From IMG/VR virus record IMGVR_UViG_3300029305_005988, positions 1 through 59,095 of that record: a DNA stretch of 59,095 nucleotides. The stretch is one strand, 5' to 3'. Within the stretch, counting starts at the first letter, position 1; each line of letters opens with the position of its first letter. Below, piece by piece: positions 3,457 to 55,390 of this stretch. This DNA comes from a virus. Its lineage: Duplodnaviria > Heunggongvirae > Uroviricota > Caudoviricetes. The translations under genes were made by a program, and so were the position numbers. The notes beneath the pieces are model-generated. The model was not told the DNA's origin and made no database searches. It worked only from the letters and a program-made list of their open reading frames with translations.

Positions 3457-3666
3457 ATGGATATTACTTTATATTCCACAGGATGTCCGCAATGTGCTGT
3501 CTTAAAGGCAAAGCTTGATTCAGCGGGAATTGAATACAGAATTGTCTCTGACCAAGAGACTATGGTTGCTTTAGGATTCCGTTCGGCGCCAATTCTTAAA
3601 GTTGATAATGTAACTTATAAATTTCCAGAAGCTATAAAATGGTTAAAGGAGCATGCTAATGGATAA
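3457..3666 (+). CDS. nrdH: NrdH/glutaredoxin-like redoxin
   Basis: LYSTGCPQC, SAPIL; 69 aa. Confidence 0.85.
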   Translation: MDITLYSTGCPQCAVLKAKLDSAGIEYRIVSDQETMVALGFRSAPILKVDNVTYKFPEAIKWLKEHANG

Positions 3667-4330
3667 TCAATATTGTATTTACTGCTATACTAATAAAACA
3701 AATGGTAAAAAATACATTGGTTAGTCTAAAGATATGGCTCGTCGTTGCCATCCATCCAATTATACTGGCTGTATTAAATTTTATAATGCTATTAAAAAAT
3801 ATGGCTGGGATAATTTTGAACAAACTATTTTATGTCAAAACCTAACTTTACAAGAAGCAAATCAAAAAGAAGAGCTTATTACAAAATATGATACTGTAAA
3901 TAACGGTTATAATATAAAAAGTGGCGGATTAAATAATGAATATTCGATAGAATCTCGTCAAAAAATGAGCAACAGTTGCAAAACTAAAAGAAAAATTATA
4001 TGTTTAGAAACACAAGAGATTTTTGATAGCGCCAAAGAGATTGAGCGACTCAAAGGATTCGCAAATGCAAACATTATTGCTTGCTGTCGTGGTAAATTAC
4101 ACACTGCTTATAAATTTCATTGGGCATACTATGAAGATTTTCTATCCAATAATATTCCATCTTCAATAGATCAAAGGACTACTAGTGTATATTGTGTAGA
4201 ACTAAACAAAACTTTTAAATCTCTAGCAGAAGCAGAGAAAGAACTTGGCTTACATCATGAAAATATATCTCGTTGTTGCCAAGGAATTTTACAAACAACA
4301 GGAGGATATCATTGGAGATATGGAAATTAA
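3659..4330 (+). CDS. Free-standing GIY-YIG homing endonuclease with NUMOD-like repeats (1 in-frame TAG)
   Basis: ATG at 3659 gives MDNQYCIYCYTNKTNGKKYIG-TAG(3722-3724)-SKD; the paralog at 207 has Q at this position (YVGQT). Confidence 0.88.
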
Positions 4331-6257
4331 TGTTAAATTGAAAAAAAATTTTGTTACCGCTTATAACAAAATGCAAGATGAATTTGGTACTGAAATGGCA
4401 AAATTGAATGGATTCGCTGATGAACAATTATCTTATACTGACTTTATTAGCTCCTTTATCGATACTAAAGTCGTCGCAGATGCGAGCATTGATGGCAATA
4501 GCAATGTTAGTAAAAAGGATATGGTTACTCTATTAAATGAGATGCCTAAGCCTCATAGAAAATTGTTATCTTATAATAAGATTCACTATGAAATGCAAAA
4601 ACATTTTGGATTTAAGCGCGCAAACGAGTGGTTACGAGCAGAGTGGATTGGACAGCTCTATATGCATGATGCCGATACTTCGACCTTTAAACATTACTGT
4701 TTCGCTTATGATCTTAAAGATCTAGCTGAAAAAGGACTATACTTTATCGGCGCTCCATTTAATCCAGAGCCTGCACAACACTTAACCACTTTTGTAGACT
4801 TTGTTAAAGAATATATTAGTTACGCTTCTAATCGCTCTTCAGGTGCCGTTGGTCTTCCTAACCTTATTCCTTATATGTATTACTTCTGGCACAAGGATAT
4901 GGAAGAAGATTATCTCGGTATCAAGAGCAGTGGCAATGGAGAGAAATATGCGCGCCAAAACTTCCAGCGTTTTGTTTACGCGGTGAACCAACCGTATGTT
5001 CGCGATGGGTCGCAATCTGCGTTTACTAATACAAGCGTGTTCGACCATCCTTATTATGAAGCTCTGTTTGGCGGCAGTACATTCCCCAATGGAGAATTTA
5101 TGATTGACTATGAGGAAGAGGTTATTGAATTCCAGAAGTGGTATATGGAAACCGTTGCTGATATTAGAGACAAGAATATGTTTACTTTCCCAGTCCTTTC
5201 AATCTCTCTTTTAAAACAAGAAGGAAAATTCCAGGATGAAGAATTTGCACGCTGGGCCGTAAAGCACAACATGCGCTGGTCTGATAGTAATTTATTTATT
5301 GATGACTCTGTAACTTCACTTTCTAACTGTTGCCGTTTGAAGAGTGATATTAAAGACCTAGGTTATTTTAATAGTATCGGAGGAACCGCACTTAAAGTTG
5401 GCTCTGTAAAGGTGTCTACAATCAATCTTGCGCGCCTTGCGCTTGATGTTGAAACAGAAGAAGAATATATTGAACAACTTAAGTATCGTACAAGACTTAA
5501 TCTTGAAGCTTTACACTGCGTACGAAATATCATTCGTCGCAATGTTGAGAAAGGACTTTTACCAAATTTTTCCAATGGACTGGTTGATTTCGAGCATCTT
5601 TATAACACAATAGGTTTTATTGGAGTATATGAAACTATGAAACGCTTTGGATATACTCATACTGATGAATTTGGCAATGTATTCTACACAGAAGATGCTT
5701 CTCGCCTTGGTAAGTTAATTTTTGAAACAATGCGCCAAGTAGCAGATGAATTTATAGCAGAAATGGGTGCCGATTATCACATTAATACCGAGCAAATTCC
5801 CGGAGAGTCGGCCGCCGCGAAACTAATGCGCAAAGATAAATTCTTCTATCCAAATGCAGAAGTCTTTGATCTACCTCTTTATGGCAACCAGTTTATCCCT
5901 CTTGGTATTCAGACCACTCTTGCAGAGCGTGTGCGTATTGCCGCAGAGTTTGACGGTTATTGTAACGGAGGTTCCATTCTTCATGCAAACATAGACGCCC
6001 CCTTTGATAGCTTTGAAAAGGCTTGGGATATGGTAAACTATATCTCCGATGCTGGGGTAACTTATTTTGCATTTAACACAAAGATTCAAGCATGTGACAA
6101 TAATCATGCATTTTATGGACGCACTTGCCCTCAGTGTGGTAGACCTGTTGAAACAGAGTATACTCGAATTGTTGGTTTTTATACACCAATTAAGACTTGG
6201 TCAAAAGAGCGCACAAATGAATATAAAATGAGAAAGTGGGAGCCTATTAATAAATGA
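4320..6257 (+). CDS. nrdD: Anaerobic (class III) ribonucleotide reductase, no N-terminal ATP cone
   Basis: GGAG RBS with ATG at 4320; SNCCRL, glycyl-radical loop YTRIVGFY, CPQC zinc site. Confidence 0.93.
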   Translation: MEINVKLKKNFVTAYNKMQDEFGTEMAKLNGFADEQLSYTDFISSFIDTKVVADASIDGNSNVSKKDMVTLLNEMPKPHRKLLSYNKIHYEMQKHFGFKRANEWLRAEWIGQLYMHDADTSTFKHYCFAYDLKDLAEKGLYFIGAPFNPEPAQHLTTFVDFVKEYISYASNRSSGAVGLPNLIPYMYYFWHKDMEEDYLGIKSSGNGEKYARQNFQRFVYAVNQPYVRDGSQSAFTNTSVFDHPYYEALFGGSTFPNGEFMIDYEEEVIEFQKWYMETVADIRDKNMFTFPVLSISLLKQEGKFQDEEFARWAVKHNMRWSDSNLFIDDSVTSLSNCCRLKSDIKDLGYFNSIGGTALKVGSVKVSTINLARLALDVETEEEYIEQLKYRTRLNLEALHCVRNIIRRNVEKGLLPNFSNGLVDFEHLYNTIGFIGVYETMKRFGYTHTDEFGNVFYTEDASRLGKLIFETMRQVADEFIAEMGADYHINTEQIPGESAAAKLMRKDKFFYPNAEVFDLPLYGNQFIPLGIQTTLAERVRIAAEFDGYCNGGSILHANIDAPFDSFEKAWDMVNYISDAGVTYFAFNTKIQACDNNHAFYGRTCPQCGRPVETEYTRIVGFYTPIKTWSKERTNEYKMRKWEPINK

Positions 6258-6733
6258 TTACACGAGGCATTATATTTGAAGATTTTGTTAATTATAAAGT
6301 GCCATGTATGACAATAGAATCACCTTATTGCAGTTTCAAATGCGATAAAGAATGTGGTAAGCCAGTGTGCCAAAATGGGCCACTAGCTAATGCCCCACTA
6401 TTAAATTACTCAATAGAAAGTATTATTAAAACCTATAGAAAAAATCCGATTACGCGCGCGGTGGTATTCCAAGGTCTAGAGCCTTTTGATTCTATTGAAG
6501 ATCTGCGCAACTTTGTTTTTCAATTTCGTAATTGTTATTCTATAGATGATGATATTGTTATTTACACGGGTTATAATAAAAATGAGATTGAAAATGAATT
6601 AACTCAATTAAAACAGTTTCCCAATATAGTAGTTAAATTTGGACGCTATATTCCTAATTGTGAATCTCATTTTGATGAAGTGCTAGGAGTAAAACTCGCA
6701 AGTCCAAATCAATATGCAGAAAGGATTAGTTAA
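6254..6733 (+). CDS. nrdG: Class III RNR activating radical-SAM protein
   Basis: CSFKCDKEC..CQN cysteine cluster, GLEPF, IYTGY, VKFGRY; directly follows nrdD. Confidence 0.88.
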   Translation: MITRGIIFEDFVNYKVPCMTIESPYCSFKCDKECGKPVCQNGPLANAPLLNYSIESIIKTYRKNPITRAVVFQGLEPFDSIEDLRNFVFQFRNCYSIDDDIVIYTGYNKNEIENELTQLKQFPNIVVKFGRYIPNCESHFDEVLGVKLASPNQYAERIS

Positions 6734-6924
6734 TGAAAATAAAACAATATGCAGATCCAGAATTTGCTAGCGTTATTCGTGCAGCAATAAAAGAGGCGCA
6801 AGGTCATTGTCCTTGTGTGCTTGAAATTTATCGCTGTGCAGACACTAAATGCATGTGTAAAGAGTTTCGTGAGGCGCCCATTGGCGCAATCTGTAATTGT
6901 GGTTTATATATTAAAGAAGATTGA
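6733..6924 (+). CDS. Minimal ferredoxin:thioredoxin reductase catalytic-chain-like Fe-S protein
   Basis: GHCPC..CMC..CNCGLY, matching the FTR CPC/CPC/CHC layout. Confidence 0.75.
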   Translation: MKIKQYADPEFASVIRAAIKEAQGHCPCVLEIYRCADTKCMCKEFREAPIGAICNCGLYIKED

Positions 6925-6949
6925 CAAATATAAAAAATTAAATTATAAT
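6921..6949 (+). promoter_or_regulatory. sigmaA-type promoter
   Basis: TTGACA-17-TATAAT. Confidence 0.85.
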
Positions 6950-6979
6950 TATAATATAAGTAATTTAAGGAGAAAATAA

Positions 6980-7408
6980 ATGAAGGCCAATTATACAGAT
7001 AAAATTCCACAGAGAACTTCAGAGGTTTCTTTTGGTAGTTTATACGAAGTTAATAAGCAATTAATGGAAAATGAACCAGAAATAACTGCTACAGAGCTTC
7101 AATTAGCGAAAGAGCATTTACGCACATGGATTACAAATATTTTTAATCAAAAGTATTTAATGCTTCTATGTCACGAATTGCGTGATTATACTTTGTTTAA
7201 TCTTGACAAAACTAGCTCTTGGGCAATAGCCAAACCACAGACAATTTATCAGGCAGTGGAAGATATTATTGACTGTATGACAAATAGAGGTAGTTTATTA
7301 ATTATTGATGAACAAGATGCTAATTCTTGGGAAATATGGATTCGTAATGAAGAAGGATGCTTTGCATACTATTTATTTCCGTATGGCAATGCCGTTCTTG
7401 AATATTAA
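6980..7408 (+). CDS. Hypothetical protein
   Basis: AAGGAG RBS, 142 aa. Confidence 0.8.
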   Translation: MKANYTDKIPQRTSEVSFGSLYEVNKQLMENEPEITATELQLAKEHLRTWITNIFNQKYLMLLCHELRDYTLFNLDKTSSWAIAKPQTIYQAVEDIIDCMTNRGSLLIIDEQDANSWEIWIRNEEGCFAYYLFPYGNAVLEY

Positions 7409-7419
7409 GGAGATATAAT

Positions 7420-7686
7420 ATGACATACGATAGAATTGTAATTTGGACCTCGCCAACCGAGCGTTTTCAAAAACTTTATGTATTTAAAGATGGCGCCCTT
7501 ATAGATCAAATGGGGGTTGAGCCTGAAAACTTAAGCGATACTCTTACAGCCCTAGTTAACAAATATACTATTAATCGTCTTGATTTTTCAGGTACCCATA
7601 GCTATGCAGAAGGGCTTGTGCATGAGTTTCAAGAGAAATCAATGCTGGATTTTGGAGTTAATGACATAAGAATTAATTATGTCTAA
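7420..7686 (+). CDS. Hypothetical protein
   Basis: AAGGAG RBS, 88 aa. Confidence 0.8.
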   Translation: MTYDRIVIWTSPTERFQKLYVFKDGALIDQMGVEPENLSDTLTALVNKYTINRLDFSGTHSYAEGLVHEFQEKSMLDFGVNDIRINYV

Positions 7687-8761: not shown

Positions 8762-9271
8762 TTGTATTTACTTGCACTAGACTGCTCTACAAAAAGCACG
8801 GGAGTAGCAATTTTTAAAGATAAAGAGTTAATGGGATAGAGCTGTATTACAGCATCTTCAAATGATTTATATAAAAGAATACATAAAATGGTTGATAATA
8901 TTCTTGCAATAGTAGAATAGTTGGGCATTGAAAAGATTGTGATGGAAGAAGTTATTCCAGATCATAGTAAAAATACAAATACCTTTAAAGCCTTAATGTA
9001 TCTATAGGCGCTAATTCATATTGAAATGCATGATAAGCATCCTGAAGTATAGATCGAATTAGTTTATCCTAGCTCTTGGCGCTCAGTATGTGGAATAGAA
9101 GACGGGCGCGGGTCAAAAAGAGAATAGAAAAAGCAAAAAGACATAGCTTTTGCAAATCAAACATATGGATTATCCTTAGTTAATGATGATATAGCAGATG
9201 CTATCTGTATTGGTTATGCATATTTACATCCAAAAAAAGAAAAAGATTATAGTGCTGCTTTAGAATGGTAA
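8762..9271 (+). CDS. ruvC: RuvC-like Holliday junction resolvase, 169 aa (5 in-frame TAG; missing from the ORF track)
   Basis: GGAGG RBS, TTG start; LALDCSTKSTG, IVMEEV, YPSSWR, DDIADAICIG. Confidence 0.88.
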
Positions 9272-10776: not shown

Positions 10777-11640
10777 TTAGAAGCTAGAGCAGCTTCCGCA
10801 ACCGTAGTTTCTAGTTACTTGATAGTCGTAGCAGCAGTTAGGGTTGGGAACCACATATGCTGGAACGGGACAAGGAGTAGAAAGTCTACGAATAAGCTCT
10901 GCAGTCTGCGCATCTTGGTTTGCAGTAATAAACGCATTTTGAGCAGCCTGAGAAGCGGCGAACTTAAGAGACTGATTCTCTGCAGTAAGAGAAGCGATCT
11001 TGTCTTGAGTCATAAAGTCAATGATTCTGTCGCCAAGTTTGTCAATAGCTTGAAGCGTATTGCAGTTATAGGTTTGAGCGGCAAAACGATCTTCCATAGA
11101 AGATTTCTCAAGGTCGCAGCAACAAGCGGCGAGCTGGCTTGAGAGTACGTTGGTATTCATCACACCTTGAGTTTTCACGTCAGCGATTGCGGCGCGAGTA
11201 TCGCAGCAACAATTAGCTAACTGATTACCAAGAGCAGTGAAACCAGCCTGATTTTGGTAACCAAGAGTACAGATAGCGTTGTCTACTCCATGGAAACCAC
11301 TTGTAATTGCATTGCTTAATGCATAGGTACTGTCGGCCAAACCATAGGTCTGGTTATCGAGTTTAGAAACGAGAGTTTGCTGATCAATGGCTGCACGAAC
11401 ATCATCTTTAGTTGCACATGGAGCTGAGCCGCAGAAATAAGGGTTGATCATGTATCCGTTTCCATCATTAGATCCACCGTTTCCACCCCAGCCATTTCTT
11501 CCCCATCCAGTGAAGAGGAATAAAAGGATGATCCACCATCCGTTTTCGCCGAAGCCATCACCGAAACCACCATTTCCTCTATTGCTACCTGTTACAGCAG
11601 CGATGTCGGATAAAGAGTATCCAGTTGTTGAATTGAACAT
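10777..11640 (-). CDS. Gly-rich protein with a hydrophobic segment (WWIILLFLF), CCC motifs and a coiled coil
   Basis: AAGGAGG RBS, 287 aa. Confidence 0.85.
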   Translation of the reverse strand: MFNSTTGYSLSDIAAVTGSNRGNGGFGDGFGENGWWIILLFLFTGWGRNGWGGNGGSNDGNGYMINPYFCGSAPCATKDDVRAAIDQQTLVSKLDNQTYGLADSTYALSNAITSGFHGVDNAICTLGYQNQAGFTALGNQLANCCCDTRAAIADVKTQGVMNTNVLSSQLAACCCDLEKSSMEDRFAAQTYNCNTLQAIDKLGDRIIDFMTQDKIASLTAENQSLKFAASQAAQNAFITANQDAQTAELIRRLSTPCPVPAYVVPNPNCCYDYQVTRNYGCGSCSSF

Positions 11641-12621: not shown

Positions 12622-15291
12622 TTAAATTCGCTCTACTGCCTTTTGCGCCTAAATATTCATCATGCCATCCAAACCAAGTGGAATGGTAATGCTCTTAATA
12701 ATATAGTCACCATGAATATCAGCCTCATCATTTTCAACTTCGATGCGCTAGTTTACATCAAGATGATAAACAGGCATTGTCTATATATTAATATTATTAT
12801 TATAACTTAAATGTTCATGGATACTTATGCGCAAAGCGTCATATGCAGGATTTTGAGCTAATGATGTAGTAACAGATTTTTCAAAAAAGTCTGCACCCAA
12901 TAGCTATTCGTTAGCATTTACTGTATTAGCTACTTCAAAATTTGAATAGTCTACTGGGGTTTTTTTTGTTAAAGGAGCTACTTCTTGATAATATAGATAT
13001 TGCGGATAATTATCTACAAAAATACAATCAATATCTTTATCCTAGATTGTTTTTGTACGCTATCCAATATCTTCTATTGAAAAGTTTTTTATATCAATCT
13101 CAGGTGGAAGATTAGGACTATTAACATCAATAGCATCTATAAAGTAGGTTATAAAAGGTTTTGTTACGAACTCCCATTTTTTTCCTGTTATATTTGCAAT
13201 TCTAAAGGAAGAAGGTAAAAAATTCAAAAGTTCATACTCAAGAGGTTTTAAAGTTTGCTTATTCTACTGTTTTAATTTAGCTTCTAAAAAAGAATTAATG
13301 CGCCAGTCAGAAAAAGTATATTTCTAACAAGGAACTGCATTTTGTCTAAGCCAGTTGTAAAAGTCACTATCCTGTTCCACTGTTCCTACAAAAGTCAATA
13401 TTCTTCCTGAGTTTAAACTCCATGAGCCATTTTCATAAATAGTTTCAGTAGAATTATCTTCGGACTAAAAAGACAATTTACTTTCTTCATTATTAACCTA
13501 TAATGTTAATCCCGTTTTTCCAATAGCTGATATATTATTTTTAGAGGAAAAAGAAGTATCTTTAAAAGATATTTGATCATTTAATAGCCATGTTCCAAAT
13601 ATCACATTGTTGGTAGAGCCACTCCCTGTTGTTCCCTCTTGTAAGTCTGGGTCGTTAGATACAAGTGCAATCTCTTCTAACTATCCTCTAAGACTATAAT
13701 AATTATCTTTATAAAATACGCCCCACTCTTTTTTGCCCTAGTCTAAATCCTTCATAAGTCTTAAATGATAATATATTGAAGACTACTAATCATTAGTCTC
13801 TCCCCAAACAGCATAGTCATTTTTAATATTGGTATACTAAGGATCATTAGAATATGAAGTTATCAATTCACTATTTTTAAATGAGTATACAGCTTTGTTT
13901 TTTCTCGTTTTTAGAAAATACTTATCTACTAAAGCTGTTTCCCAATTATCTGAAGTATTTCCTTCGTTTAAGTAGTTTTTGATTTCTTGAAAATGAAATA
14001 CTCCATCCACATCAAAGAAATATTCATAGTTACCTAGAGAATTTTTAATTTTCTCTAAAACAGACTAGATTGATTCTCCTACCTATGAAGTTAATTCGCT
14101 ACCTGTTGGATATGTAAAATCAGTAGTCGTATATCCTACAACAGCTCCGGGCCAAAAAACAGTATCGTAACTCTATCTTATCTCATTATCAGTTGATAAA
14201 AACCCAACTTGTATATTTCCTTCAATATTTTCAGAGTTTTTAGTATTTAAATACAATGAAGGTAACCCAGTAATAGGTTCGTCAACAAGCCCTCTAAACC
14301 ATACTTTATTTACAAAACGCCTCTCTGGTTGCCAGCCTTTGTCTATTAGAAAAGTATAACATTGTTTTATTATTCCATCATTAAAAGTAACAGGTTTATA
14401 TTCATAGTTAGAAGCTTTAAAGTTCTCCCACTATTCAGTTCCGCTATTAAAAAAAATTACCCATATATCAGTAGGAAGTTTTGTTTTTAGATAATTTTCT
14501 AAACCATAAGGCAAGTCTGTTCTATCTGAGTCTATTACAATTTCTGTCGAACCTTCTATAATATCTACATTAGGGGGCTCTCCACTTTTATCAACATTAA
14601 TTATTCCATATTCATCATTATGTCCAAATCCTTTTACCTCTATAGTTGGATTCCAAGTCAAAATCTATTCAGTAGTATCTGGAATATCTTCAATAACTAC
14701 CTGCCATTCTGGTAACTCACCCATGATACAAACTAGAGACTTTATTAAGTCTTTATATTTTACTGGACCATCTTCTAATGGAGAATGAGTCATTTCAATA
14801 GAAAAAGTGCCTCCTTCTTCTCCATTCAAAAGAGCCATTTTATCATTTAGTTTCAAGCTTATTGTGATACCTTGATTATTATAAGAAACCGAGGCATTTG
14901 AAATGACAAAAGTACCCAAGGGTATCCAGAAAATATCAAAGTCAGGATACTGACCTCCAGTGTTTTTTATACCAATTTCAACCTAAACTCGTTTATTCAT
15001 TGAGATAAGCGTTTTTATATTTGTGACCTCATTCATAATATCAAGATCATCAGTATCAGCTCTAGTACTTTTATCATAGTCGGTAACAAGAGTAATAGAA
15101 CCTGTGCGCCTTACGGCGGAGGCACTATTTATTGTAATAGAACCTCCAGTGGCGCGCCCTTCGATTGCCTTAAGGGGCAAATCTTGTCGATTTAAAATAA
15201 TTAATCTAGTCCACTAAGTTCGGTGCTAAAGTTTAGAGATATAATCTAGCATAACTGGATTAGACAAATATTCATATCTACTATGTGCCAT
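12622..15291 (-). CDS. Large tail/baseplate structural protein, 889 aa (many TAG)
   Basis: Track fragments at 15180, 14919 and 14661 share one frame; ..AVRRTGSITL..GNYEYFFDVDGVFHFQEIKNYLN..GDYIIKSITIPL..AVERI-TAA; length divisible by 3. Confidence 0.8.
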
Positions 15292-15306
15292 TATTTCACC
15301 CCCCTA

Positions 15307-17760: not shown

Positions 17761-17790
17761 ATTTATCAACTCCTTTTATCTCTTAATTTA

Positions 17791-42943: not shown

Positions 42944-43522
42944 TTATTCTTTGACGATAGTATACTTAGGCGCGCTCATGCGTCTTGTAGGTGTTTCAGA
43001 CTTATTTTCAACAGCATCTTCAGTTAAAGGGGTTGCGCGTCTTGTTTTTACTTCGGTTTTAACTGCAGTTTCACTTAAGCGTCTAATTTCAATAGCCTTA
43101 GTAACATCAAAGTTTGTTTTCTCTAATATAGCCTCTCTCTTGCGCATATCATTAAGATTGGTCTTAACAGCTTCATCTTTAATTAGTTGAACGACACCCT
43201 CTGGCGCAAAGTCAAGAGCATCATAAAGCTGATCAAGTGTACCACGCTCTAAAAGAAACTCTACATCCTTAGTATTATAAAAATATTCGGGCTCAGCATT
43301 AGGTAGCAATTCATCGACTGCTTCTTTGCTATGAATAATTAAATCACTTTCAATTAATCTTCTAGTGCCGGGAATTTGAATCGCTTGACGCAATTCTCCC
43401 ATAGAAACTTCTTTTACTTCATTTCCAACAAAACGTCTAATAGTATTGGATTCTGGCACATGATACGAAACAATAGAATTAGATCTATTTTCAATTCTAA
43501 TTTTATCAGTGTTATTTAACAT
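42944..43522 (-). CDS. Hypothetical protein following the capsid gene; no TAG
   Basis: AAGGAG RBS, 192 aa. Confidence 0.8.
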   Translation of the reverse strand: MLNNTDKIRIENRSNSIVSYHVPESNTIRRFVGNEVKEVSMGELRQAIQIPGTRRLIESDLIIHSKEAVDELLPNAEPEYFYNTKDVEFLLERGTLDQLYDALDFAPEGVVQLIKDEAVKTNLNDMRKREAILEKTNFDVTKAIEIRRLSETAVKTEVKTRRATPLTEDAVENKSETPTRRMSAPKYTIVKE

Positions 43523-43554
43523 ATTTTTAACTCCTTTTATCTCCTAAAAAATTT

Positions 43555-43589
43555 AAGAGGGAAGGGAAGTATATCTTCTCTTCCCTCTT
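43555..43589 (-). terminator. Hairpin terminator after the capsid gene
   Basis: AAGAGGGAAGGGAAG-N5-CTTCTCTTCCCTCTT. Confidence 0.7.
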
Positions 43590-43601
43590 GCTTTATCTTA
43601 A

Positions 43602-44639
43602 TTATCTATCAAGTGTGAGAGATGTGTTTTGATAAACACAAATATCATTATTAACGATAGCGGCAACTCCAACCTTCTTATAGAAGTGAATGCCCTTAGA
43701 CCAGTCATCATTATCCTCTTCCTTAATGCAAGTATCACCTTCAAAGGCAATCTTAACAGGCTTTTCAGCTCCGCCAGGAATAATCCAAGCATAAGCAGGA
43801 TCAATGACTTTCTTTGTATTTGTTTCATCAGTGAAAGACTGACGAAGAACAATTACTTGATGTCCCTTGTAATTACCAAGGTAACCATTTGCCCACATTT
43901 GATCCTTCATTGTGTCAGATACCCAACCCTCTGCAGGAATCATTGTAGATGCAAACTCAAATGTGCAATAGATCGTAGATCTGCCATTACCATAAGAATC
44001 GGCAACTGCAAGAAGCGCATCCATTTCACCTTCATCAAACTTATCAGTCTTAAACTTATTCGCAGTCTGAATTGTCTCAACAGTTGCGATAAGAGCATTA
44101 GCGATTTCAAGATAAATCTTGTCATCCATACCCTCCATAATAATGTCGATAAGGGTAGCCATATCAACGCGTCCATCAAGGAATTCCTCAATAGCGATTT
44201 GACAAGCTGCACCGATAGCCGATGTAGTTACTTCGTAGCTACGACCATCAAGCTTGAAAACTTCATAACGACCAGCAGAACCAACCTTGGTTACGAATTG
44301 CTTTGCACGTCTACGAGAAGCCTCAGTAATCTTTTGAGTAAAGATAGGCTTTTCACCCTGTTTATAAGTTTTAATTTCAGCGAAGGCGCCATATTGTTGC
44401 ATAACCTTGGCAGGAAGTTTATCTGTGATAATTTCTTCCATAAGTGCAAACACAACATTATGATTTTCTCTCCAAAGAGCATATGAACCAACAAGCTCTT
44501 TTAACTCATTACGAAGAGCTTGGTTTAAATCTGCATAACTATAATTAGTGCCGCTAAACGAGTATGCAACGGGAGCAGAAGGATTAGCGCCTGCTGTCTG
44601 CATTGCTAATGTACGTAAATCTTCTCTATTTAATGCCAT
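43602..44639 (-). CDS. Major capsid protein; no TAG
   Basis: 345 aa in the portal-protease-decoration-capsid order; followed by a terminator. Confidence 0.8.
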   Translation of the reverse strand: MALNREDLRTLAMQTAGANPSAPVAYSFSGTNYSYADLNQALRNELKELVGSYALWRENHNVVFALMEEIITDKLPAKVMQQYGAFAEIKTYKQGEKPIFTQKITEASRRRAKQFVTKVGSAGRYEVFKLDGRSYEVTTSAIGAACQIAIEEFLDGRVDMATLIDIIMEGMDDKIYLEIANALIATVETIQTANKFKTDKFDEGEMDALLAVADSYGNGRSTIYCTFEFASTMIPAEGWVSDTMKDQMWANGYLGNYKGHQVIVLRQSFTDETNTKKVIDPAYAWIIPGGAEKPVKIAFEGDTCIKEEDNDDWSKGIHFYKKVGVAAIVNNDICVYQNTSLTLDR

Positions 44640-44659
44640 TACTATTTCCCTCCCTTTTA

Positions 44660-45181
44660 TTATTGAATACGCATAACCTTGATGCCTTGTTGGCCATCAG
44701 GCATTGTATAAACTTTTACAACTTGGAATACAATATCGCTAGTACCTTCGGTAGAAAGGAAACCTTGAGCGTTAATCTTAAGCTCGGTTCCAACATCAAT
44801 TTCCTCAGTACCAACAAGTTCAGCCTTACCAGAAGTATTTCCCTTCTCAAGGCAGTTTGTAGTGTAAATATCTCCAACATGAGTTGCAAGAACTCTAGGA
44901 ACCATAATTCCATCATCATAATTTGTCTTTACAAGAGCAAAATCTTTATAAGACTCTCTTGCATCATAAATTTTAACTTCATTCATAACGAGCATCCACT
45001 CGCCGGCGCCTGTGAAGTTAACTTCGCCAGTTTTATAGTCATACTTTACGAACTGACCATTCTCAAGAATAGCGATATCCTTATTACAAGGAAGTTGTGC
45101 GTAAACTTGACCATTTCTTTGAGCGGATAAATGATTAGGCTCAACCTGACCAAATCCAATACGCTTAATAGTAGTAGCCAT
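44660..45181 (-). CDS. Capsid decoration/cement-like protein; no TAG
   Basis: 173 aa between scaffold and capsid genes; GQVEPNHL..GDIYTTN. Confidence 0.65.
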   Translation of the reverse strand: MATTIKRIGFGQVEPNHLSAQRNGQVYAQLPCNKDIAILENGQFVKYDYKTGEVNFTGAGEWMLVMNEVKIYDARESYKDFALVKTNYDDGIMVPRVLATHVGDIYTTNCLEKGNTSGKAELVGTEEIDVGTELKINAQGFLSTEGTSDIVFQVVKVYTMPDGQQGIKVMRIQ

Positions 45182-45201
45182 GCTATATGTCCTCCTTAAA
45201 A

Positions 45202-46623
45202 TTATTGATTTTTCGCATTATCGACTGCTTTTAACCAGTCGGGCTTAGAAGCAACGCCAAGGTCGGACACATTAAATGTCACAGCTGGTTGCTCTATTTT
45301 ATTATTAATTTTAGAGTTATCCTCTAATTCAAAATTGACCTTTTTTCTGAAACAAATTACAGAAAGTTTTTCTTCAATTTCTTCTACAGTGTAATTAGCT
45401 TTGTTTGAAATAATATCTGCCTTATCATCATCGCTAAGCATGTAGAATTTTCCAATCATTTCATCTTTCTTTGCATCGTCACTTAGTCTTTTAAATTCAA
45501 CAAGTTCTGCATGCGCAGTTTCAAGAGTTGAGAATCTAGATTGAAGATCATTGTGGACAGACTCAAGAGTAGAGAATCTACTCTGAAGATCTGCATACTC
45601 TGCTTGAAGCGCAGTAAACTGCTCCTCTATAGAAGGCGCGGACGCCGGTTCAGGATCCATAGGAGTAGGTTCAGCCGCAGGTTCTGGATCTGCAACTGGC
45701 TCAACTACAGGTTCATCCACAACAGGCTCAGTCACAGGCTCTTCAGCAACGACTGGCGCATCTTCAACAACTGGCTCTTGTGATGCAGCAAAAGAAGGTT
45801 CTGCTGGTGTCTCAGGCTCTGGCTCAAAGCTAGGTTCAACAACCGGCTCAAACTCAGGCTCAGCGCTAAACTCAACTACAGGCTCCTCGACAACAACATT
45901 TTCAACAACATCGTTGTTCATTTGCTGACCTCCTTGTAATGCAGTTTGAAGTTCCTGCATCATAGTAAATAATGTTTGTCTAAAGGTATCGTCTACCTTT
46001 GTAAAAGACGCACTAACATTTGGCGCAGTAACACTAGCGCCTTCGAAACAAGGCTCAATGTCATCGCCCAAAATGCAAAGTTTTGAAAAAATTGCGTCAT
46101 TTATAATAAAGAAATCCATGCCACGAGTATTGGTTTCCCAGTGCCCTTGTAAGGTATCTTCATCCAATTCCATTGATTGCGGCTTGCCATCACTCTCAAC
46201 GGCGGACTTACACTCTTCAAATTGACCGGTCCACAAATATCCAGTAGTCATTAGATACTCTCTCAAAATAGTTTCTCCAAAATCATTGGTATCTTCAAAT
46301 TCTTTAAACCATACCTTTGCGTCTGGAGCTACAAAACCATAAGGAACGGTTTTGCAGTTAAATTTAATGCCCTCGTCATCAATAATAACTTCACGGCCAT
46401 GGTCTCTAAAGTCTTCTTTTTCTTCCTTATAATAACCAACAATGGGCGCGCCGCGTAATGTCTTCGCCATTTCCGTTGCGACATCTTTGGTAATATAGGA
46501 TCTGTTTCGATTTTCACCGACATATAAGACCTTAATCTCACAGGCGCTCATAAGTGGATTGATATCAAGGGGTTGTAAATTGATAAACTCAGGAGAGCTT
46601 ATCGTAGCAACTGATTTATGCAT
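45202..46623 (-). CDS. Prohead protease fused to an acidic scaffold; no TAG
   Basis: N-terminal VLYVGENRN..PIVG..DHG..QSMEL; Pro/Glu-rich linker; coiled-coil tail. Confidence 0.78.
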   Translation of the reverse strand: MHKSVATISSPEFINLQPLDINPLMSACEIKVLYVGENRNRSYITKDVATEMAKTLRGAPIVGYYKEEKEDFRDHGREVIIDDEGIKFNCKTVPYGFVAPDAKVWFKEFEDTNDFGETILREYLMTTGYLWTGQFEECKSAVESDGKPQSMELDEDTLQGHWETNTRGMDFFIINDAIFSKLCILGDDIEPCFEGASVTAPNVSASFTKVDDTFRQTLFTMMQELQTALQGGQQMNNDVVENVVVEEPVVEFSAEPEFEPVVEPSFEPEPETPAEPSFAASQEPVVEDAPVVAEEPVTEPVVDEPVVEPVADPEPAAEPTPMDPEPASAPSIEEQFTALQAEYADLQSRFSTLESVHNDLQSRFSTLETAHAELVEFKRLSDDAKKDEMIGKFYMLSDDDKADIISNKANYTVEEIEEKLSVICFRKKVNFELEDNSKINNKIEQPAVTFNVSDLGVASKPDWLKAVDNAKNQ

Positions 46624-46640: not shown

Positions 46641-48251
46641 TTAGCTCATAGCTTCTTTATTGCGAATTGTTTTTTCGCTTTTTTGATCATCAGGCTTTTC
46701 TTGTCTGCCGACTTTCTTTTTTTCAACAACTTCTTCCTACTTGTTTTCATTATTTTCAGCAGGTTTGTTGCTATTTTGAATTTTTGCTTTTGCCTCTTCT
46801 TTTTGTTGCTTAGATTGGAAGAGACTAGAAATGTCAAGAACCTCGTTTTCAAACTTTGCAGTTGCTAAAACTGCCGATTGAGATTGTCCTAAAGCAATGC
46901 TAGCAAGCAGCTTAGAGCCGCCTTGCGCGCTTTGTTCTCTATAAATTTTTGACATATCTTTATAATTATAAATTGTTGTAGGAAGTATTTCAACTTTATA
47001 ATATAACTTTTTTGGATTTTTATTCAAAGGTTTGATAATATAATTTAAAAATGACTAAAATTGAAGAAGAAGGTTATACATATTCGCTTCATCATCAAGA
47101 ATGCTCTTTTCTAATGCGATATTACCATCGGTATTAAATAAATTTTGTGCAGTACCAGATTCATTATAAACGGTTCTCTCAACCTTTTCTAATTCATCAA
47201 TAGTAGTAGCAGTATTTTTATCTGCCATATCAGCAACTTCTACCTCTGCAAAAGTTGTTAATACATCAATACCAATAGCCTTACCTAACATTCTAACAGC
47301 ATTATTATGAAGCTGTTGTGCTTCATCAACATCAAATATCAAATCGCCATTTTTATCTAATGGCATTTTCTAAATAATGATTTTGAGAAGCTTTTGAGCC
47401 ATTTTCTTTCTATCCAACTCTTGAGCGGCATCCAAATCAATAATATGTGGAATAACCGAAATAAAAGGAGGATAATCTTCGCCATTAATATTAAATTTCA
47501 TAGTATGCTCTGGGTCGAGCAAATACCATCCCGCAGTATCTCCAGGAAAGTCTGGAATTAACTATCCATTAATATAAGCAGTATATCCTTTTTGAAAATC
47601 TCGTGGAAACATTTTTAAGATACGAAGGCGCTGATCTTTATCTTTATAGAAGTCATCAAAAAACTTCATGTTAAACTCTACTGCCGGACGTCCCTTTACG
47701 CTATATCTTGATCTACAGTATCTTGGCAAAAGCTCTTGCACTTGCGCAGTATCTGTATCCTCAATAATATATCCGTAATAACACCCTTGGCGCATTATTT
47801 TTAATGCCACTTCGCCAAAATACTCTTTTACGCCAAAAGCATCGAGATAAGCACTATTTTTATCAAAACCTTCAATAATCTTATCTGGAGTAACTTTATT
47901 TGAAGTAGCATAAGGAATAATGAACCAGTCGTATCTATAAAAATTAGCAAGGTGTTTACAAAGTCTAGAATAAATACCACTTACTTTAAAGTAGAACTCA
48001 GAAGCCTCTCTCATAAACTCTATATCGCCTCTAGCAATAGCCTGCTAAATACGCTCTTTTGTCATACGAGGATCAAGTTTCTTATAATTACCCAAATTAA
48101 CGACTGCGTCGTCAAGATGTCTAATTCCTACTTTTATCTTTGAATAGTCCAACTCTGGAATAACATTTCCATCTACTGGAGCACTTCTTGGGGTGCTTAT
48201 ATCAAAACCTTTAGAATGAATCTCTTGTATTCTGTTATTCAAGTTAAGCAC
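46641..48251 (-). CDS. Portal protein, 536 aa (5 in-frame TAG)
   Basis: Fragments at 48251, 48014, 47366 and 47027 share one frame; ..III*KMP..; ends GRQEKPDDQKSEKTI.. Confidence 0.82.
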
Positions 48252-48722: not shown

Positions 48723-49871
48723 TTACGAGAAGAACATCATTTCAGATATGTTTCTTTTCTTTCTTTTTCTACTACGATCTTCCTCTTGTTTAATATAATA
48801 TAAACCATATTCAAAAGCAGAAAATTTATCTTTGGGAATACTTCTTGAAGACTACTTAAGAATAATATTAACACCTTCGTTGTCTTCTACTAAATTTAAT
48901 AATTGCTCGCGCAAGATGGTGGTTAAAGTAAAAGGTTTTAGATACTCTGCGCGCTTGGCCGCATCCATTTCCTATCCCATCTTAGTTGTCATCAATTTAG
49001 TTTTAGCCTAAGTTTCATCTATTAATAAATTAATTTTACCACCAACTAATTGAGTTTGAACATAAGTATGTGCTTCTGTATTAATAGGCGCATTAGCTTT
49101 AATTAAATACATAGCATTTTCCTCAACACCGGGACCCTTAATTTTCTTATACTATTCATTAAACTCGTCTGAGGTTCCGCCTTCAACTCCAAAAGGAGGT
49201 AAATATTCTCCTGTTTCTGGATCTTCTTGACCTTTTGTCATAAAGTCAATTAGACCTGCGCCAAGACCATTCGCGTCTATTGCCGCAATACGCGCCTTGT
49301 ATTTATAAAATAACTTCTTAATTTTAATAGCTTGCGCTTCAAAGTCCTCTGCTTCATAAGAATAGAGATTAACTAAAGATTTATGTGCAGCGCCCTATAT
49401 CTATGGAGTAACTTTAAATACACATACCTCTGTAGTGCATTTAAAACGGCCAACGTCAATTCCTAATACATAATAACCATTTTTAGAGGTGCGGCCAGAG
49501 AATTCATATTCTGGCTGTAATAATTGACGATGTTTATCAAACTTTTCTGCAGAGAAAAACGCATTTTCGGCATCTCCAGACCACTCTGACTCATATTCAC
49601 GGCTAAAAGATGCATCATTATAAGTTCCATCAAGCTTTAATTCCTCAATAAAACTTTTCTTCAATAATTTTTCCATAACAGGAATGCGCCAAGTTCCACC
49701 CATAACAACTGCTTCATCAGGGTAGATAATCTGACGAATAAGAAGTTCTATAAGTTTCTCGTATGCGAAGCTGTTTTTCCATCCTGCGGTAGTCACATAA
49801 ATCTACGATTTGTTAACAGTCTCATCTTCTATACGAGAGCCGTCTGAAAGTCTTCGGTCTACGTTCATGGT
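48723..49871 (-). CDS. terL: Terminase large subunit, exon 2 (TAG-containing)
   Basis: TMNVDRR..KS*IYVTTAG..YESEWSG..YVLGIDVGR..IAAIDANGLG..DKFSAFEY. Confidence 0.9.
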
Positions 49872-49885
49872 CAAGAAAACATCTA

Positions 49886-50605
49886 TTAGATGTCTTCTTG
49901 GACTATATCATCAACTAATTTCCATTTATAACCTTTGTGACGAATATTCATACCACTGCATACTCTGCTAATGGCTGAAGAGGTCCCATCTACGGCTCTC
50001 GCCGCTTCTTTGAAACTTGGAAAAATTGCCAAAATATTTCCATTTTCATCACATTGAGCAACCTTTTTGCCCGTTATAAATTTTTTCTCAATTTTGGTCA
50101 CATCTTGAATATCATCATAATATCTCCATTGGTAATCATTAGCTGTCTATCTTTGACGTCTGCAACACATTGTGATTTTGCTTTGTGAACCGCCTGTTTG
50201 ACGAGCTGCCTCAGAGACACTTTCAAAGGTTGCCATCTGCACACCGTCAAGATTATATTGAATTACTGGTCTTGCCCTACCGGACATGAATAAACCAGTT
50301 TCTATAGCATGCTGAGTATTTTCTGAGGGAGTAACCCATTCTAAATTCTCAACATTATTATCTCCACGATTACCATTAATATGATTTACATAAGGTTTCT
50401 TTTCTGGATTGTCAAGAAAAGTTTCAGCCACCATTCTATGCACTCTCATTCTTTTTTGTTTTCCTGCTATAAGCAAAGTTACAAATTTATAATCCTGCTA
50501 AGAAGATTGTGATAAAATATAGTCTGTTGTGTCTTTTCTTACTACCCCTTCTGTTGAAACACTATAATCTGTTTCAACACCTTCAAAATAAAATTTTTTC
50601 CACAT
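49886..50605 (-). CDS. Intron-encoded HNH homing endonuclease (NUMOD-type), 239 aa (2 TAG)
   Basis: AAGGAG RBS; VHRMVAETF..VNHINGNRGDNNVENLEW; two NUMOD1-like repeats; the 3' end overlaps the intron S element. Confidence 0.9.
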
Positions 50606-50658
50606 AATATTACTCCTTTTGATTTACATTCTATCCCGGGATTATTCCCTTTCATGAA

Positions 50659-50698
50659 TATATAAAATTTAAAGTAGCAATATTATCAAAATTTGACC
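50659..50698 (-). promoter_or_regulatory. Putative phage promoter GGTCA-N29-TATATA inside the terL intron
   Basis: TGACC at 50694-50698 on the + strand; 29-nt spacer; upstream of the HNH gene. Confidence 0.65.
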
Positions 50699-50912
50699 AA
50701 AATTTTTAGTTGCGGTGCGCTTCGAGTGGTGATCAATTCCACCCTAACCGGTACACTCATCCCGGATAGTCTCTACACCTTCAACACCATACGGTGAAGC
50801 TTGGCACGGGGTTTTTGACTGTTCCCCGTTAGCAGATCCGAAGATCCACACCCTTGTATCACAGGTTCACACCGTTTTCCACAGTAGCTCACGCTGCTGC
50901 GCCCCAGTATCT

Positions 50913-51509
50913 AGGGATTATTACTTCATTCAACAAGGTCTAGTCTATAAGAATACATTCCTCCATTAAACCACCAGTAGCACGTTTACCACGAGAGGAC
51001 TGGCGCGCAGCCATAATGTCTAATTTTGAACCATTTTTGAATATTAATTCAATATTATCTTTACTAGTTTTAGTTTTACCTCTTGTCATATCTAGTTCAT
51101 TTTTTAAACCAGGTATTAACTTACAAAGCTCATCTGACTTTTCTTTAGCAATACCCGCCGCCTACTCTTTGCCGCCTGTAGTAACGAATAAATGACTACC
51201 GGGATAAAGTATGCATCTAAGCATTAAAACAAGTACTGATAAGAAGCTCTTTGAATATGCACGAGGGAAAGTGGCATAAGCATATCTATGACGCATAACT
51301 GCGCGCAAAAAAAGACGCTAATAAAAGAATAGTGAAAAGTTCTCTGGATTAGAACCACAAAGAAACTCTACAAACATATCTGGGTACTCACGCCAATAAG
51401 CTACATACTAACGAATTATTGGAATCTAAACTCTTATTCGCTCTTCAGAAATACCAATCTTTTTCTAGCCCCCTTCAAGAGCGAGATTAATTAAATCTTG
51501 AACTGCCAT
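50913..51509 (-). CDS. terL: Terminase large subunit, exon 1 (6 TAG)
   Basis: LFFY*RLFLR..FPRAYSKSF (Walker A region), GGKE*AA, GGLMEE (Walker B). Confidence 0.9.
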
Positions 51510-52798: not shown

Positions 52799-53968
52799 TT
52801 ATTTTTTATTTCTGCACTCTTTACAAATGCTATACAATCCATCTTTACTGGTGTTATTTTTTGAAAAAAAACGTGTGCTAGAAGGTTTTAGCTGTTTACA
52901 ACAAGAGCACTTTTTCCAAACGCCCTTTTCTACATTGGTATAATGCCATATTAAATAATCATTTTGCGCCTTCTCTGCAATTATTTTTGGAATTTTAGTT
53001 CTCCATAAAGAAGATATATACTAAATTGAATAAGAGATATTATATTTTTCTTTTAACATGGTTTGAATTTCTGCGCTAGTCTTTCCATCAAATTTCATTT
53101 TTAAGAAATCTAAAAAATGGGGATATTTTTCAAGGCTTTTATTCAAGAGTAAGTCAAAATCTTCCATAAGATAATAAAAGTCATTTTGATAGCGCCCATT
53201 GGTCTCTAACTTTAACGCATTGTAATTACTTAAAATTGCCAAAATGTGAACTGGATTAAAGAAGGATATTAGCCCATCGCTTTGAGGATTTCCATTTGAA
53301 TCAACCCACCGATGCTCAGAGAGGTCAACTTTGTTTAATCCATGCGGCGTGGGCGCCAAATACATAGGAGGCTTAGCAGAATTCTTAAGCGCATACTAAT
53401 CACGGCGCATTTCAATCAACTACTTTTTAAGTAAATACTTTTTTTTACCAGTTGCCGCTTTTATCGCCTCTTCAGTGGCTTGCATTTGAATTTTAAGCTC
53501 TTTTAATCCAGGAATTGTGTTAATATCTTCATCTGTAATTCCAATTTTAGGTGTAAGTAAAACATTTTTATCATTTACCATCAAATTATAAATTCCATCT
53601 TCGCCATTTTCAAACTTTTCTGCCAATCCTTCAAAAGAAGTTTCGCGCTTATTAATCGTTATCAAGCGATTATCAGTCAAGTATAGGCGCGCCTTTTTTT
53701 CTTCTTTACTAATGCCGCCCATTATGTAATCACCTAAAATCTCTAAATAGCGATTGCTTAATTTCTCCTTAGGGGTTTGCGCCACGATCTTATTAACAAG
53801 GTCGGCGCGCTCTTCGCAGGTTTTTAATTTATAGTCTAGCTTAATAGTAGATTCAATATTTTCTTCGAGTAATTTCTCCTCAATAACTTCTGCCTCTTGT
53901 TCAGGAGCCGAGTCTTCGGTATCTGGGTCTTCTTCTGGCAGAATGTCTGATAAGGTTATTTTTTCCAT
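52799..53968 (-). CDS. Candidate transcription regulator: HTH/sigma-region-4-like segment plus C-terminal Zn ribbon, 389 aa (3 TAG)
   Basis: KK*LIEMRRD*YALK; ..GKTSAEIQ..YSI*YISSLWR..; CSCC..CKEC. Confidence 0.6.
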
Positions 53969-54076: not shown

Positions 54077-54106
54077 ATAATTAAAGATTATTAAAGGAGA
54101 AAAATA

Positions 54107-54451
54107 ATGCAAACTATTTGGAAATATAAAATTGAACCAGATTTTATTAATCAGGTATATAGAATGCCTAAGGGCGCAATAGTGTTAAGTGTTGGCGCCG
54201 ATGCTCATAATAATTTATGTTTTTGGGCAAAAGTAGACACAACTGCTGAATATGAAGATCATCTAATGGCATGTGTAGGGACTGGTTGGGAGATGGATCA
54301 CATCTTTAATTCAAGAGATAGATATGCGTGCTTTGTTGGAACGATTAAAAGAGGCGAATATATATATCATATTATTGATCTTGGCGGCGATCCAGATACA
54401 AAGAAGATTGAGCTGCACCCTTCAGCGCCGAATAGCGAGGTGGGCGCATGA
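54107..54451 (+). CDS. Hypothetical phage protein
   Basis: AAGGAG RBS; MQTIWKY..MPKGA..GTG. Confidence 0.8.
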   Translation: MQTIWKYKIEPDFINQVYRMPKGAIVLSVGADAHNNLCFWAKVDTTAEYEDHLMACVGTGWEMDHIFNSRDRYACFVGTIKRGEYIYHIIDLGGDPDTKKIELHPSAPNSEVGA

Positions 54452-54636
54452 AACCAATTATCGTTAAAGTAAGCAAAGATAAAAATGGATGTGAATTTAT
54501 TACTCTTACTCTTGCCGAGTTTGAAGCTGCTATTGATGGTGCATATGATGCAGGATATGTTGATAGCCGCCGCGAACAAGAGATGTTGACCGCAGTGTTA
54601 AACAAACCTTTAGAGGTACTTGAAAATGATGACTGA
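54448..54636 (+). CDS. Hypothetical protein
   Basis: GAGG RBS; ATGA coupling to the upstream gene. Confidence 0.7.
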   Translation: MKPIIVKVSKDKNGCEFITLTLAEFEAAIDGAYDAGYVDSRREQEMLTAVLNKPLEVLENDD

Positions 54637-55390
54637 GTTAGAACTTTTTAAAATGTGTAACAAAGATAAAATCTATACTTAGGTAGGAGATGGAGTGGAC
54701 TATGGATTCATAGAGGATTCAGGCGAGGGGATTTTATATATTTTCTTTGAACCAAGCGATGGCTTAGATGATTGGCGCAATAATTTCTCCTATTGGCGCC
54801 GCCCCTATAAAGATATGGAAATCTCTTATCGTGTGCACGGCGGTTTTCTAAAGTGCTGGAAAACAGTAGAGGATATTATTATTAATAAGATTCTTGAAGA
54901 GGATCCTATGGAAAATGGAAGCTATAGATGGCGCAGAATTGTAGTAGTAGGATATAGTCATGGAGGCGCGCTCGCCGCACTTTGTCATGAATGTGTTTGG
55001 TTCCATAGAGGAGATTTGCGCCAAGGAGATCATATACTAGGATATGGATTCGAAGCCCCGCGTATTTATGCGGGTTGGCGCCTGCCGCAAAAATTAAAAG
55101 AGCGCTGGCGCACCTTTAAAGTATATAGAAACAAAAATGATATCGTAACACATATGCCGCCTGTATGTTTCTTTTTTAGACATGTAGGAGAAATTGTGAA
55201 GATTGGCGCAGAGAGCGCGTGTGGGCCCATTGAGGCGCATTATAGGACATGGGTAAGGGTTGGTCTTGGAGAGAAAATTGAGAATATTGCGGCAGAGTTA
55301 AAAAGAGAGAAAGAGTGGAGTAAACAAAAGAAACGCGCGAGAGCGGCCGAAAAAGCTAAACAGAGACGCATGCGTAAAAAATCAAATTGA
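54626..55390 (+). CDS. Class-3 lipase-like alpha/beta hydrolase, 254 aa (1 TAG)
   Basis: VHGGF, VVGYSHGGALA (GxSxG), NKNDIVTHMPP, late His; ATG at 54626 with GAGG RBS, TAG at 54680. Confidence 0.85.

Follow-up and report, generated by a model that had tools for sequence, protein, structure and literature searches.

TAG is very probably read as glutamine by a phage-encoded tRNA in an SPbeta-like tailed phage from animal gut samples

Under translation table 11 the minus strand of the phage DNA studied here is, between approximately 11.7 and 54.0 kb, a patchwork of short open reading frames (ORFs) only, which raises the question of whether TAG serves as a stop codon in this phage. The DNA (the window, 59,095 bases) is the first part of the 123,095-base virus record IMGVR_UViG_3300029305_005988, which is described in IMG/VR as linear and has a CheckV completeness of 78%. 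The window makes up the structural half of an SPbeta-like tailed phage of 123 kb, which comes from animal gut samples and distantly resembles phAss-1. An original prediction, made from the letters of the window, held that TAG is read as glutamine between positions 3659 and 54682. The observations described below make it very probable that in this phage TAG is a sense codon decoded as glutamine by the phage's own tRNA with the anticodon CUA.

When TAG was read through, the same strand resolved into a compact series of long ORFs. Coding density was calculated by a greedy choice of non-overlapping ORFs, with reading of TGA or TAA as controls:

11677-53968, minus strand: late block (virion, packaging and late sigma genes), TAG very probably a sense codon
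Density, 11.9-54 kb: 0.580 under table 11, 0.962 with TAG read, 0.637 with TGA read, 0.809 with TAA read
Density, whole window: 0.642 under table 11, 0.937 with TAG read, 0.699 with TGA read, 0.831 with TAA read

The comparison of tables 15 and 11 that had been proposed with the original prediction thus gave a gain of 0.38 in the late block, and this gain was specific to TAG. The late block holds 34 ORFs of at least 60 amino acids (13,557 codons), with 200 in-frame TAGs, evenly distributed along the genes, in 28 of the 34. In-frame TAA and TGA were absent by construction, whereas the other two frames contained approximately 44 TAA and 36 TGA per 1000 codons; ORFs of such length therefore did not arise by chance. 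The genes on which the argument mainly depends are listed here; names of late proteins were taken from PHROGs and Atlas, and Pfam gave no match for the capsid-region, terminase and sigma-like proteins.

29673-35276, minus strand: tail tape measure, 1867 amino acids, 49 TAG; PHROG tape-measure families, best E 1e-70
46641-48251, minus strand: portal, 536 amino acids, 5 TAG; phrog_2739 portal, E 9e-64
50889-51509, minus strand: probable N-terminal piece of the terminase large subunit, 206 amino acids, 6 TAG; phrog_15503 (function unknown), E 5e-61
48723-49874, minus strand: C-terminal piece of the terminase large subunit, 383 amino acids, 7 TAG; phrog_2 and phrog_5909 terminase
52799-53968, minus strand: sigma-factor-like gene at the head of the late block, 389 amino acids, 3 TAG; phrog_5767 sigma factor, E 2e-44
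8762-9271, plus strand: RuvC-like Holliday junction resolvase, 169 amino acids, 5 TAG; phrog_159, phrog_827 and phrog_1770, best E 2e-20, residues 1-159
3653-4330, plus strand: GIY-YIG/NUMOD homing-endonuclease-like gene, TAG at codon 24 (3722-3724), translation KKYIG[TAG]SKD

In the tape-measure frame table 11 leaves 50 pieces, the longest of 178 codons. Fragmented ORFs had been predicted to join across TAG, and long ORFs were indeed obtained for the tape measure, the portal, the terminase pieces, the fibres and the RuvC-like gene. Standard annotation would break 28 of the 34 late genes, which bears out the earlier warning that most virion genes would be misread. The motifs cited in support were all found with TAG at the marked place: YIG[TAG]S at codon 24 of 3653-4330 (compared with YVGQT in 207-1049), FFY[TAG]RLF and GGKE[TAG]AA in 50889-51509, YYQ[TAG]G in the tape measure, III[TAG]KMP in the portal and TS[TAG]ANH in 41341-41955.

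Gene ends had been said not to depend on TAG, and all 34 late ORFs are in fact terminated by TAA (24) or TGA (10). This statement needs a qualification for two late genes (17791-18297 and 41341-41955, minus strand), whose final sense codon is a TAG followed directly by TGA or TAA; here an old TAG terminator may have acquired a back-up stop. The right-hand limit of the predicted range, 54682, is also less secure, as it was set by the TAG at codon 21 of 54620-55390, and the true start of this gene may be located further downstream. Several early genes have single TAGs at codons 4-21; these may be artefacts of the longest-ORF rule, located upstream of the real start.

For the assignment of the amino acid, window proteins in which every TAG was written as X were aligned by tblastn with 80 IMG/VR loci surrounding homologues of the portal (identity 53-83%), to which 55 more loci and seven long contigs were added later. 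Twenty candidate amino acids were scored with substitution frequencies derived from the same alignments, every column having equal weight. Among the 80 loci, 84 TAG columns with 2,815 cells contained 48.6% Q, 13.4% E and 7.6% K, and the true CAA/CAG columns of the same alignments 43.4% Q, 11.7% K and 11.3% E; Q was the majority residue at 35% and 36% of the columns, respectively. With the 68 TAG columns that had at least five homologues, glutamine was the best of the 20 candidates, 54 log-likelihood units ahead of glutamate, and 17 columns were at least 80% Gln. When all 157 covered TAG columns were included, it was best by 96 log units. The TAG columns thus have the residue profile of glutamine codons, in agreement with the original prediction.

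Some of the columns were strongly conserved. Glutamine was present in 54 of 54 homologues at codon 116 of the N-terminal terminase piece (TAG 51162-51164) and in 91% at TAG 51318-51320, whereas five of the seven TAG columns of the C-terminal piece were 91-100% Gln among 56-76 homologues. The corresponding values were 96% of 80 homologues for portal codon 294 (TAG 47370-47372) and 98% of 44 for codon 191 of the sigma-like gene (TAG 53396-53398). In the homing-endonuclease-like gene, for which Pfam gave a NUMOD-like match and a GIY-YIG score of 21.1 bits (below the Pfam cut-off of 22.6), the TAG at 3722-3724 was opposite Gln in two standard-code relatives. The three fibre paralogues of the window are repeat-rich and 26-46% identical, and the residues opposite their TAGs were scattered and uninformative regarding the amino acid. 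In the six closest relatives, the TAG sites of the window carried TAG in 25-30% and CAA/CAG in approximately 35-48%, and sites with CAA in the window had TAG there in 8-11%. This turnover indicates that TAG and the glutamine codons interchange freely.

No tRNA was detected by ARAGORN within the window, and of the 24 tRNAs that it found in the whole genome none had the anticodon CUA, whether default or relaxed settings were used or introns were allowed. Using the Rfam tRNA model, Infernal identified a tRNA at genome positions 101316-101411 (plus strand, 56.3 bits, E 9e-12) with the anticodon stem GCGGU/ACCGC and the loop CU-CUA-AA, which makes it a predicted amber suppressor; the CUA tRNA that the original prediction suggested looking for is thus present in the rest of the genome. 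ARAGORN labels 101316-101414 as 'tRNA-??? (taaa)', a misreading caused by a 24-nt extra arm. This hairpin lies between the anticodon and T arms and consists of the stem CUACGG/CCGUAG and the loop GUCUGCU, which is centred on CUG with a U before it. The predicted fold is a cloverleaf with a separate extra arm (-38.7 kcal/mol).

In Escherichia coli, the glutamine identity set recognized by glutaminyl-tRNA synthetase (GlnRS) comprises a weak 1-72 pair, G2-C71, G3-C70, G73 and U35. The suppressor has U1-A72, G2-C71, G3-C70 and the discriminator G73, with U35 in the anticodon, and the phage's own tRNA-Gln(UUG) has the same acceptor-end set. As judged from these nucleotides, the suppressor carries a glutamine-type identity set. 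Its gene stands alone in the replication module, with an RNase H gene on one side and, on the other, an ORF of 165 amino acids followed by gyrB. Judged by consensus matches only, the gene is preceded at 27 nt by a promoter-like site and followed at 9 nt by a terminator-like hairpin, and it appears to form a small transcription unit of its own.

BLAST comparison of the 96-nt tRNA with the relatives was nearly blind; orthologues were identified by a structure-aware pattern scan and by ARAGORN on the relatives' contigs. (A custom tRNA model was not used, the alignment of 18 genome tRNAs being too ragged at the 5' end.) Three TAG=Gln relatives with long contigs (G001, G002 and G003) each had exactly one CUA tRNA, whose position is the same as in the window genome, between the RNase H homologue and the 165-amino-acid ORF upstream of gyrB. 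In these tRNAs the 1-72 pair was weak or mismatched, G2-C71 and G73 were present, and none had the extra arm. The retention of a single CUA tRNA in this position, with a conserved anticodon arm and Gln-type acceptor features despite sequence divergence, indicates selection.

Several observations weigh against this interpretation. The TAG at 39570-39572 (codon 137 of 39411-39980, minus strand) is opposite tyrosine in 39 of 39 homologues. Fast-evolving tail genes give few homologues per TAG column, and over all 157 columns Q was the majority residue at 27%, compared with 52% for CAA/CAG columns, the latter being mostly in better-conserved genes. The 24-nt extra arm is unusual, as long extra arms are otherwise characteristic of Ser, Leu and Tyr tRNAs, and charging with glutamine is presumed from the alignments, not from the tRNA alone. 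Neither a release factor 2 (RF2) gene nor a GlnRS gene, which the original prediction had suggested looking for, was found: searches of the 123-kb record (78% complete) for release factors (PF00472) and for Gln/Glu-tRNA synthetases (PF00749) gave no match, while control searches did, and this leaves the competition with host release factor 1 (RF1) unexplained. These genes are a minority feature of phages using table 15 (code 15), neither defining nor required. Finally, up to approximately eight genes have a TAG at most 29 codons from their TAA or TGA end, and TAG may still end some proteins. The tyrosine column is the only strongly conserved non-Gln column among the TAG sites.

The possibility that the TAGs are real stops, in pseudogenes or created by sequencing or assembly errors, has only the appearance of the region under table 11 in its favour and is negligible. 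The frames are interrupted by TAG alone, with no TAA or TGA in 13,557 late codons compared with approximately 36-44 per 1000, each, out of frame; homology extends over the TAG positions in as many as 80 independent contigs, with TAG in Gln columns; and close relatives from other samples have 25-30% of the TAG sites in common. These counts already refute it. It is also very improbable that TAG is a sense codon for another amino acid, either Glu or one of Ser, Leu and Tyr. Taking into account that 43 loci of the same portal family (41 in one clade) have TAG opposite Glu and one contig has it opposite Tyr (see below), that Glu is the second residue at TAG columns (13%), and that the long extra arm and G73 of the window suppressor are both also features of tRNA-Ser, such an assignment had to be considered. 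However, the method that called Glu in two of those relatives (G006 and G007) gave Gln for the window genome and for G001-G003, Glu being 41-55 log units worse in all four; in G002 the runner-up was Lys, 47 log units below Gln. The 13% Glu at TAG columns matches the 11% found at true Gln codons. In the cell-level test Gln exceeded Ser, Leu and Tyr by some 4,700 to 7,600 log units, and in the position-weighted test of all 157 columns it exceeded Ser by 118. The suppressors of the close relatives combine the same Gln-type acceptor end with the lack of an extra arm.

Very improbable, too, is a supply of TAG decoding by the host, through a suppressor tRNA or because the host itself uses code 15, which would make the phage tRNA dispensable or inactive. 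According to published surveys suppressor tRNAs occur in just 35-40% of recoded phages (10.1101/2021.08.26.457843), and the odd extra arm of the window tRNA, as well as the lack of a phage release factor or synthetase match in the incomplete record, would fit such a scheme. Against it, the CUA tRNA, with its Gln-type features, has been retained as a single copy in the same position in each of the four TAG=Gln genomes examined, although the sequences have diverged, and this indicates selection. The standard code is used by the hosts that have been published for such phages (10.1101/2021.08.26.457843). Decoding of TAG as glutamine by the phage's CUA tRNA thus remains the preferred interpretation.

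The distribution of TAG over the genome is uneven. Its frequency was 14.75 per 1000 codons in the late block versus 1.25 in the replication block at 91-123 kb, and its share of Gln-type codons was 35% in late genes and 3.5-4.5% in two plus-strand blocks of replication and metabolism genes. The plus-strand genes at 0.2-8.5 kb and at 91-123 kb (the latter outside the window) are devoted to nucleotide metabolism and replication, and encode NrdD, dUTPase, guanylate kinase, gyrase A and B, ligases, a DnaB-like helicase, RecJ and a sigma-70-like factor. Outside the late block clear in-frame TAGs were found in the RuvC-like resolvase and in homing-endonuclease genes. Some late genes avoid TAG:

42944-46623, minus strand: TAG-free island of four genes (0 TAG in 1183 codons), including the major capsid protein (43602-44639)
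37749-38630, minus strand: virion structural protein, phrog_2729, TAG-free
35366-35884, minus strand: late-block gene, TAG-free

For the capsid protein (345 amino acids) the nearest Atlas clusters were those of the SPbeta capsid protein YonB (score 0.99, a lead only), and a sequence search against solved structures gave no match.

These features would be compatible with the following scheme. A host enzyme would charge the suppressor with glutamine, either GlnRS or glutamyl-tRNA synthetase (GluRS) followed by amidation; this is presumed because the acceptor end of the suppressor has retained tRNA-Gln features. Completion of the late sigma-like factor, terminase, portal and tail proteins would have to wait until the suppressor tRNA had accumulated, and TAG would in this way gate the timing of virion production. 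Those proteins that are required in the greatest quantity would avoid TAG, a codon probably decoded against competition by host RF1. The gating role, the charging enzyme and the efficiency of decoding are all inferred. A bias toward late genes together with suppressor tRNAs is the published pattern of recoded phages (Borges et al., 10.1101/2021.08.26.457843), and the presence of TAG inside the late sigma-like gene fits the published idea that recoding times late expression. The sole hint at the host is a phage-like 106-kb contig binned in a metagenome-assembled genome of Eubacteriales, whose capsid protein is 83% identical.

Reassignment of TAG to glutamine in phages is already known, and the window phage adds a lineage. 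It has been established, with phage suppressor tRNAs, for crAss-like, Lak, Garnet, Topaz and some Agate gut phages (10.1101/2021.08.26.457843), and proteomic proof for crAss-like phages is reported by Peters et al. (PMC9523058). The window phage resembles these phages in having TAG opposite Gln, TAG in late and structural genes, early genes readable in either code, and a phage tRNA with the anticodon CUA without a dedicated synthetase. It differs from them in belonging to another lineage (an SPbeta-like siphovirus with a tape measure of 1867 amino acids), in lacking an RF2 match, and in its suppressor, which stands alone in the replication module instead of in a tRNA array and has the extra arm. 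A cellular counterpart is E. coli supE (glnV), a tRNA-Gln with the anticodon CUA that reads UAG and is still accepted as a glutamine tRNA. Both tRNAs are of the Gln type, as far as the acceptor-end nucleotides of the window suppressor (listed above) indicate, but supE arose from a cellular tRNA by point mutation and suppresses partially, whereas the window suppressor is a phage gene that would serve approximately 200 codons and has an added arm.

In a phage collection the best match of the window portal was an unannotated 12-kb faecal fragment (61%), followed by phAss-1 (37%) and then by Enterococcus, Bacillus, Lactococcus and SPbeta-like siphoviruses. The phAss-1 group (proposed Phassvirus, 'Caudoviricetes code 15 clade'; Babkin et al. 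2023, PMC10607447) has been published with table 15 and tRNA(CUA) genes, in keeping with the statement in the original prediction that TAG-to-Gln recoding occurs in gut phages. Its members (approximately 130-136 kb) and the window phage alike have large siphovirus-type genomes from the gut, with terL, tape measure, portal and fibre genes that are interrupted by TAG, and tRNA(CUA) without a synthetase. phAss-1 has three suppressor genes, the window genome one. As members of the phAss-1 genus share 80-86% nucleotide identity (PMC10607447) and the portals are 37% identical, the window phage is certainly outside this genus. Divergent phAss-1 relatives without a detected suppressor tRNA have been described (PMC10607447); the mislabelling of the window suppressor by ARAGORN illustrates one way in which a suppressor can escape detection. 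Annotation of the window phage and its close relatives with table 11 fragments most virion genes and hides the terminase, portal and tape measure, which lowers estimates of completeness and host range; such genomes should be translated with table 15. With the window phage, code 15 gains a well-supported lineage among the SPbeta-like siphoviruses of the gut, in which the suppressor has a fixed place in the replication module. The wider value lies in the family context, and the extra-arm suppressor and the multi-code family are the points worth carrying forward.

The code used by each locus was deduced from the in-frame stops that fell within its alignments to window proteins, and several codes were found within one portal family:

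TAG=Gln: 7 portal rows, including the window
Standard code: 63 portal rows
TGA/Trp: 22 portal rows (L033, L034, L038, L039, L041, L042, L046, L048, L050-L053, L055, L061, L064, L066, L067, L071, L075, L150, L159, L161)
TAG/Glu: 43 portal rows, 41 of them in one clade (clade of about 41 loci: relatives L065, L070, L072, L079-L082, L085, L108-L137, L141, L143, L149, L162, plus G006, L163-L170, and G007, L171-L177)
TAG/Tyr: 1 portal row

In G006 (complete by CheckV) and G007 (93%) Glu was the best candidate by 82-100 log units, and 37-39 columns were at least 80% Glu; cells of the TAG/Glu clade contained 50-58% E and approximately 10% D. Both genomes have one CUA tRNA within a tRNA array (G006 3032-3104, G007 11094-11166, minus strand), whose acceptor stem differs from that of the window suppressor; in G007 it is close to that of the phage's own tRNA-Glu(UUC). 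The TGA/Trp relatives, with Trp in 187 of 245 cells, are spread over no fewer than four distinct clades of the portal tree. In a 67-kb contig (L049, or G005, L104-L107) TAG was mainly opposite Tyr (54% of cells; three of nine columns at least 80% Tyr), and no tRNA was found on this half-complete contig; TAG is tentatively assigned to Tyr there. According to Borges et al. (10.1101/2021.08.26.457843), TAG-to-Gln and TGA-to-Trp are the only changes seen in phages whose code differs from that of the host. Our literature searches for TAG-to-Glu in phages retrieved nothing but unrelated work on genetic-code expansion, and no report of TAG=Glu or TAG=Tyr in phages was found in the library used.

On the portal tree (FastTree, portal alone), in which phAss-1 lies on a long branch and was used as outgroup, the window belongs to a TAG=Gln clade (support 100) that is distinct from the main TAG=Glu clade (41 rows, support 98). 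Both clades are neighboured by standard-code lineages, and at least 11 state changes are needed. A broader reading, possible but on balance doubtful, is that the code of the window is one of several independent code changes in one phage family and that, in addition, the CUG-loop hairpin of its suppressor is a possible decoy anticodon. If this were true, a decoy anticodon shown to the charging enzyme would be a new way to keep the identity of a tRNA after a change of its anticodon.

Reading of TGA as a sense codon was unsupported in this genome: no in-frame TGA or TAA was seen in called frames, despite a UCA tRNA-like gene. The first reciprocal test of TGA and TAA was confounded by antisense 'shadow' alignments and was then restricted to called frames. 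The tRNA-like gene (genome 85295-85370, L002:8295-8370, plus strand) has an anticodon loop centred on UCA, as expected for reading TGA. Position 33 is a G, the stems contain mismatches and the Infernal score is 33.9 bits; the gene looks like a relic or inactive, because the window genes contain no in-frame TGA.

Two further tRNA genes on the plus strand are unusual. Bacterial Leu tRNAs have a long extra arm, but the 77-nt tRNA at genome 87749-87825 (L002:10749-10825), with the anticodon UAG (CUN Leu), has none; a normal long-arm tRNA-Leu(UAG) is located at 81841-81928. The tRNA gene at 82171-82293 (L002:5171-5293; Infernal 43.7 bits) has an insert of approximately 50 nt inside the anticodon loop.

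Within the late block, the assignment of 50889-51509 to the terminase is considered probable on the basis of the call made in the original prediction and of its position, as it adjoins the C-terminal piece across an HNH insert. The two pieces (together 48723-51509, minus strand) are separated by approximately 1 kb, which holds an HNH endonuclease gene (49886-50605) with two TAGs. This gene looks like a mobile insertion, either an intron or a free-standing homing gene, because homologues occur in only 8 of the 80 related loci, compared with 59-76 for the flanking pieces. The tail genes, which had PHROG tail protein matches and phrog_25468 repeats, are as follows:

12622-29251, minus strand: tail/fibre/baseplate-like genes of 889, 820, 168, 132, 668, 64, 1183, 735 and 722 amino acids, with 23, 12, 3, 1, 10, 1, 3, 3 and 16 TAG, respectively
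18826-20832, 21154-24705 and 24744-26951, minus strand: fibre-like genes, TAG-interrupted

The fibre-like genes of 1183 and 735 amino acids (21154-26951), with 3 TAG each, have 2.5 and 4.1 TAG per 1000 codons, compared with 15-26 in their neighbours, and a G+C content of 0.38-0.41 versus approximately 0.32 around them; they are possibly a receptor-binding module recently gained from a standard-code phage. Outside the window, a protein of 829 amino acids (genome 91656-94145, L002:14656-17145, plus strand) matches the major-vault-protein shoulder domain (Pfam E 2e-24), and the codon use of its gene deviates from that of the remaining genome (CAG 30 versus CAA 2).

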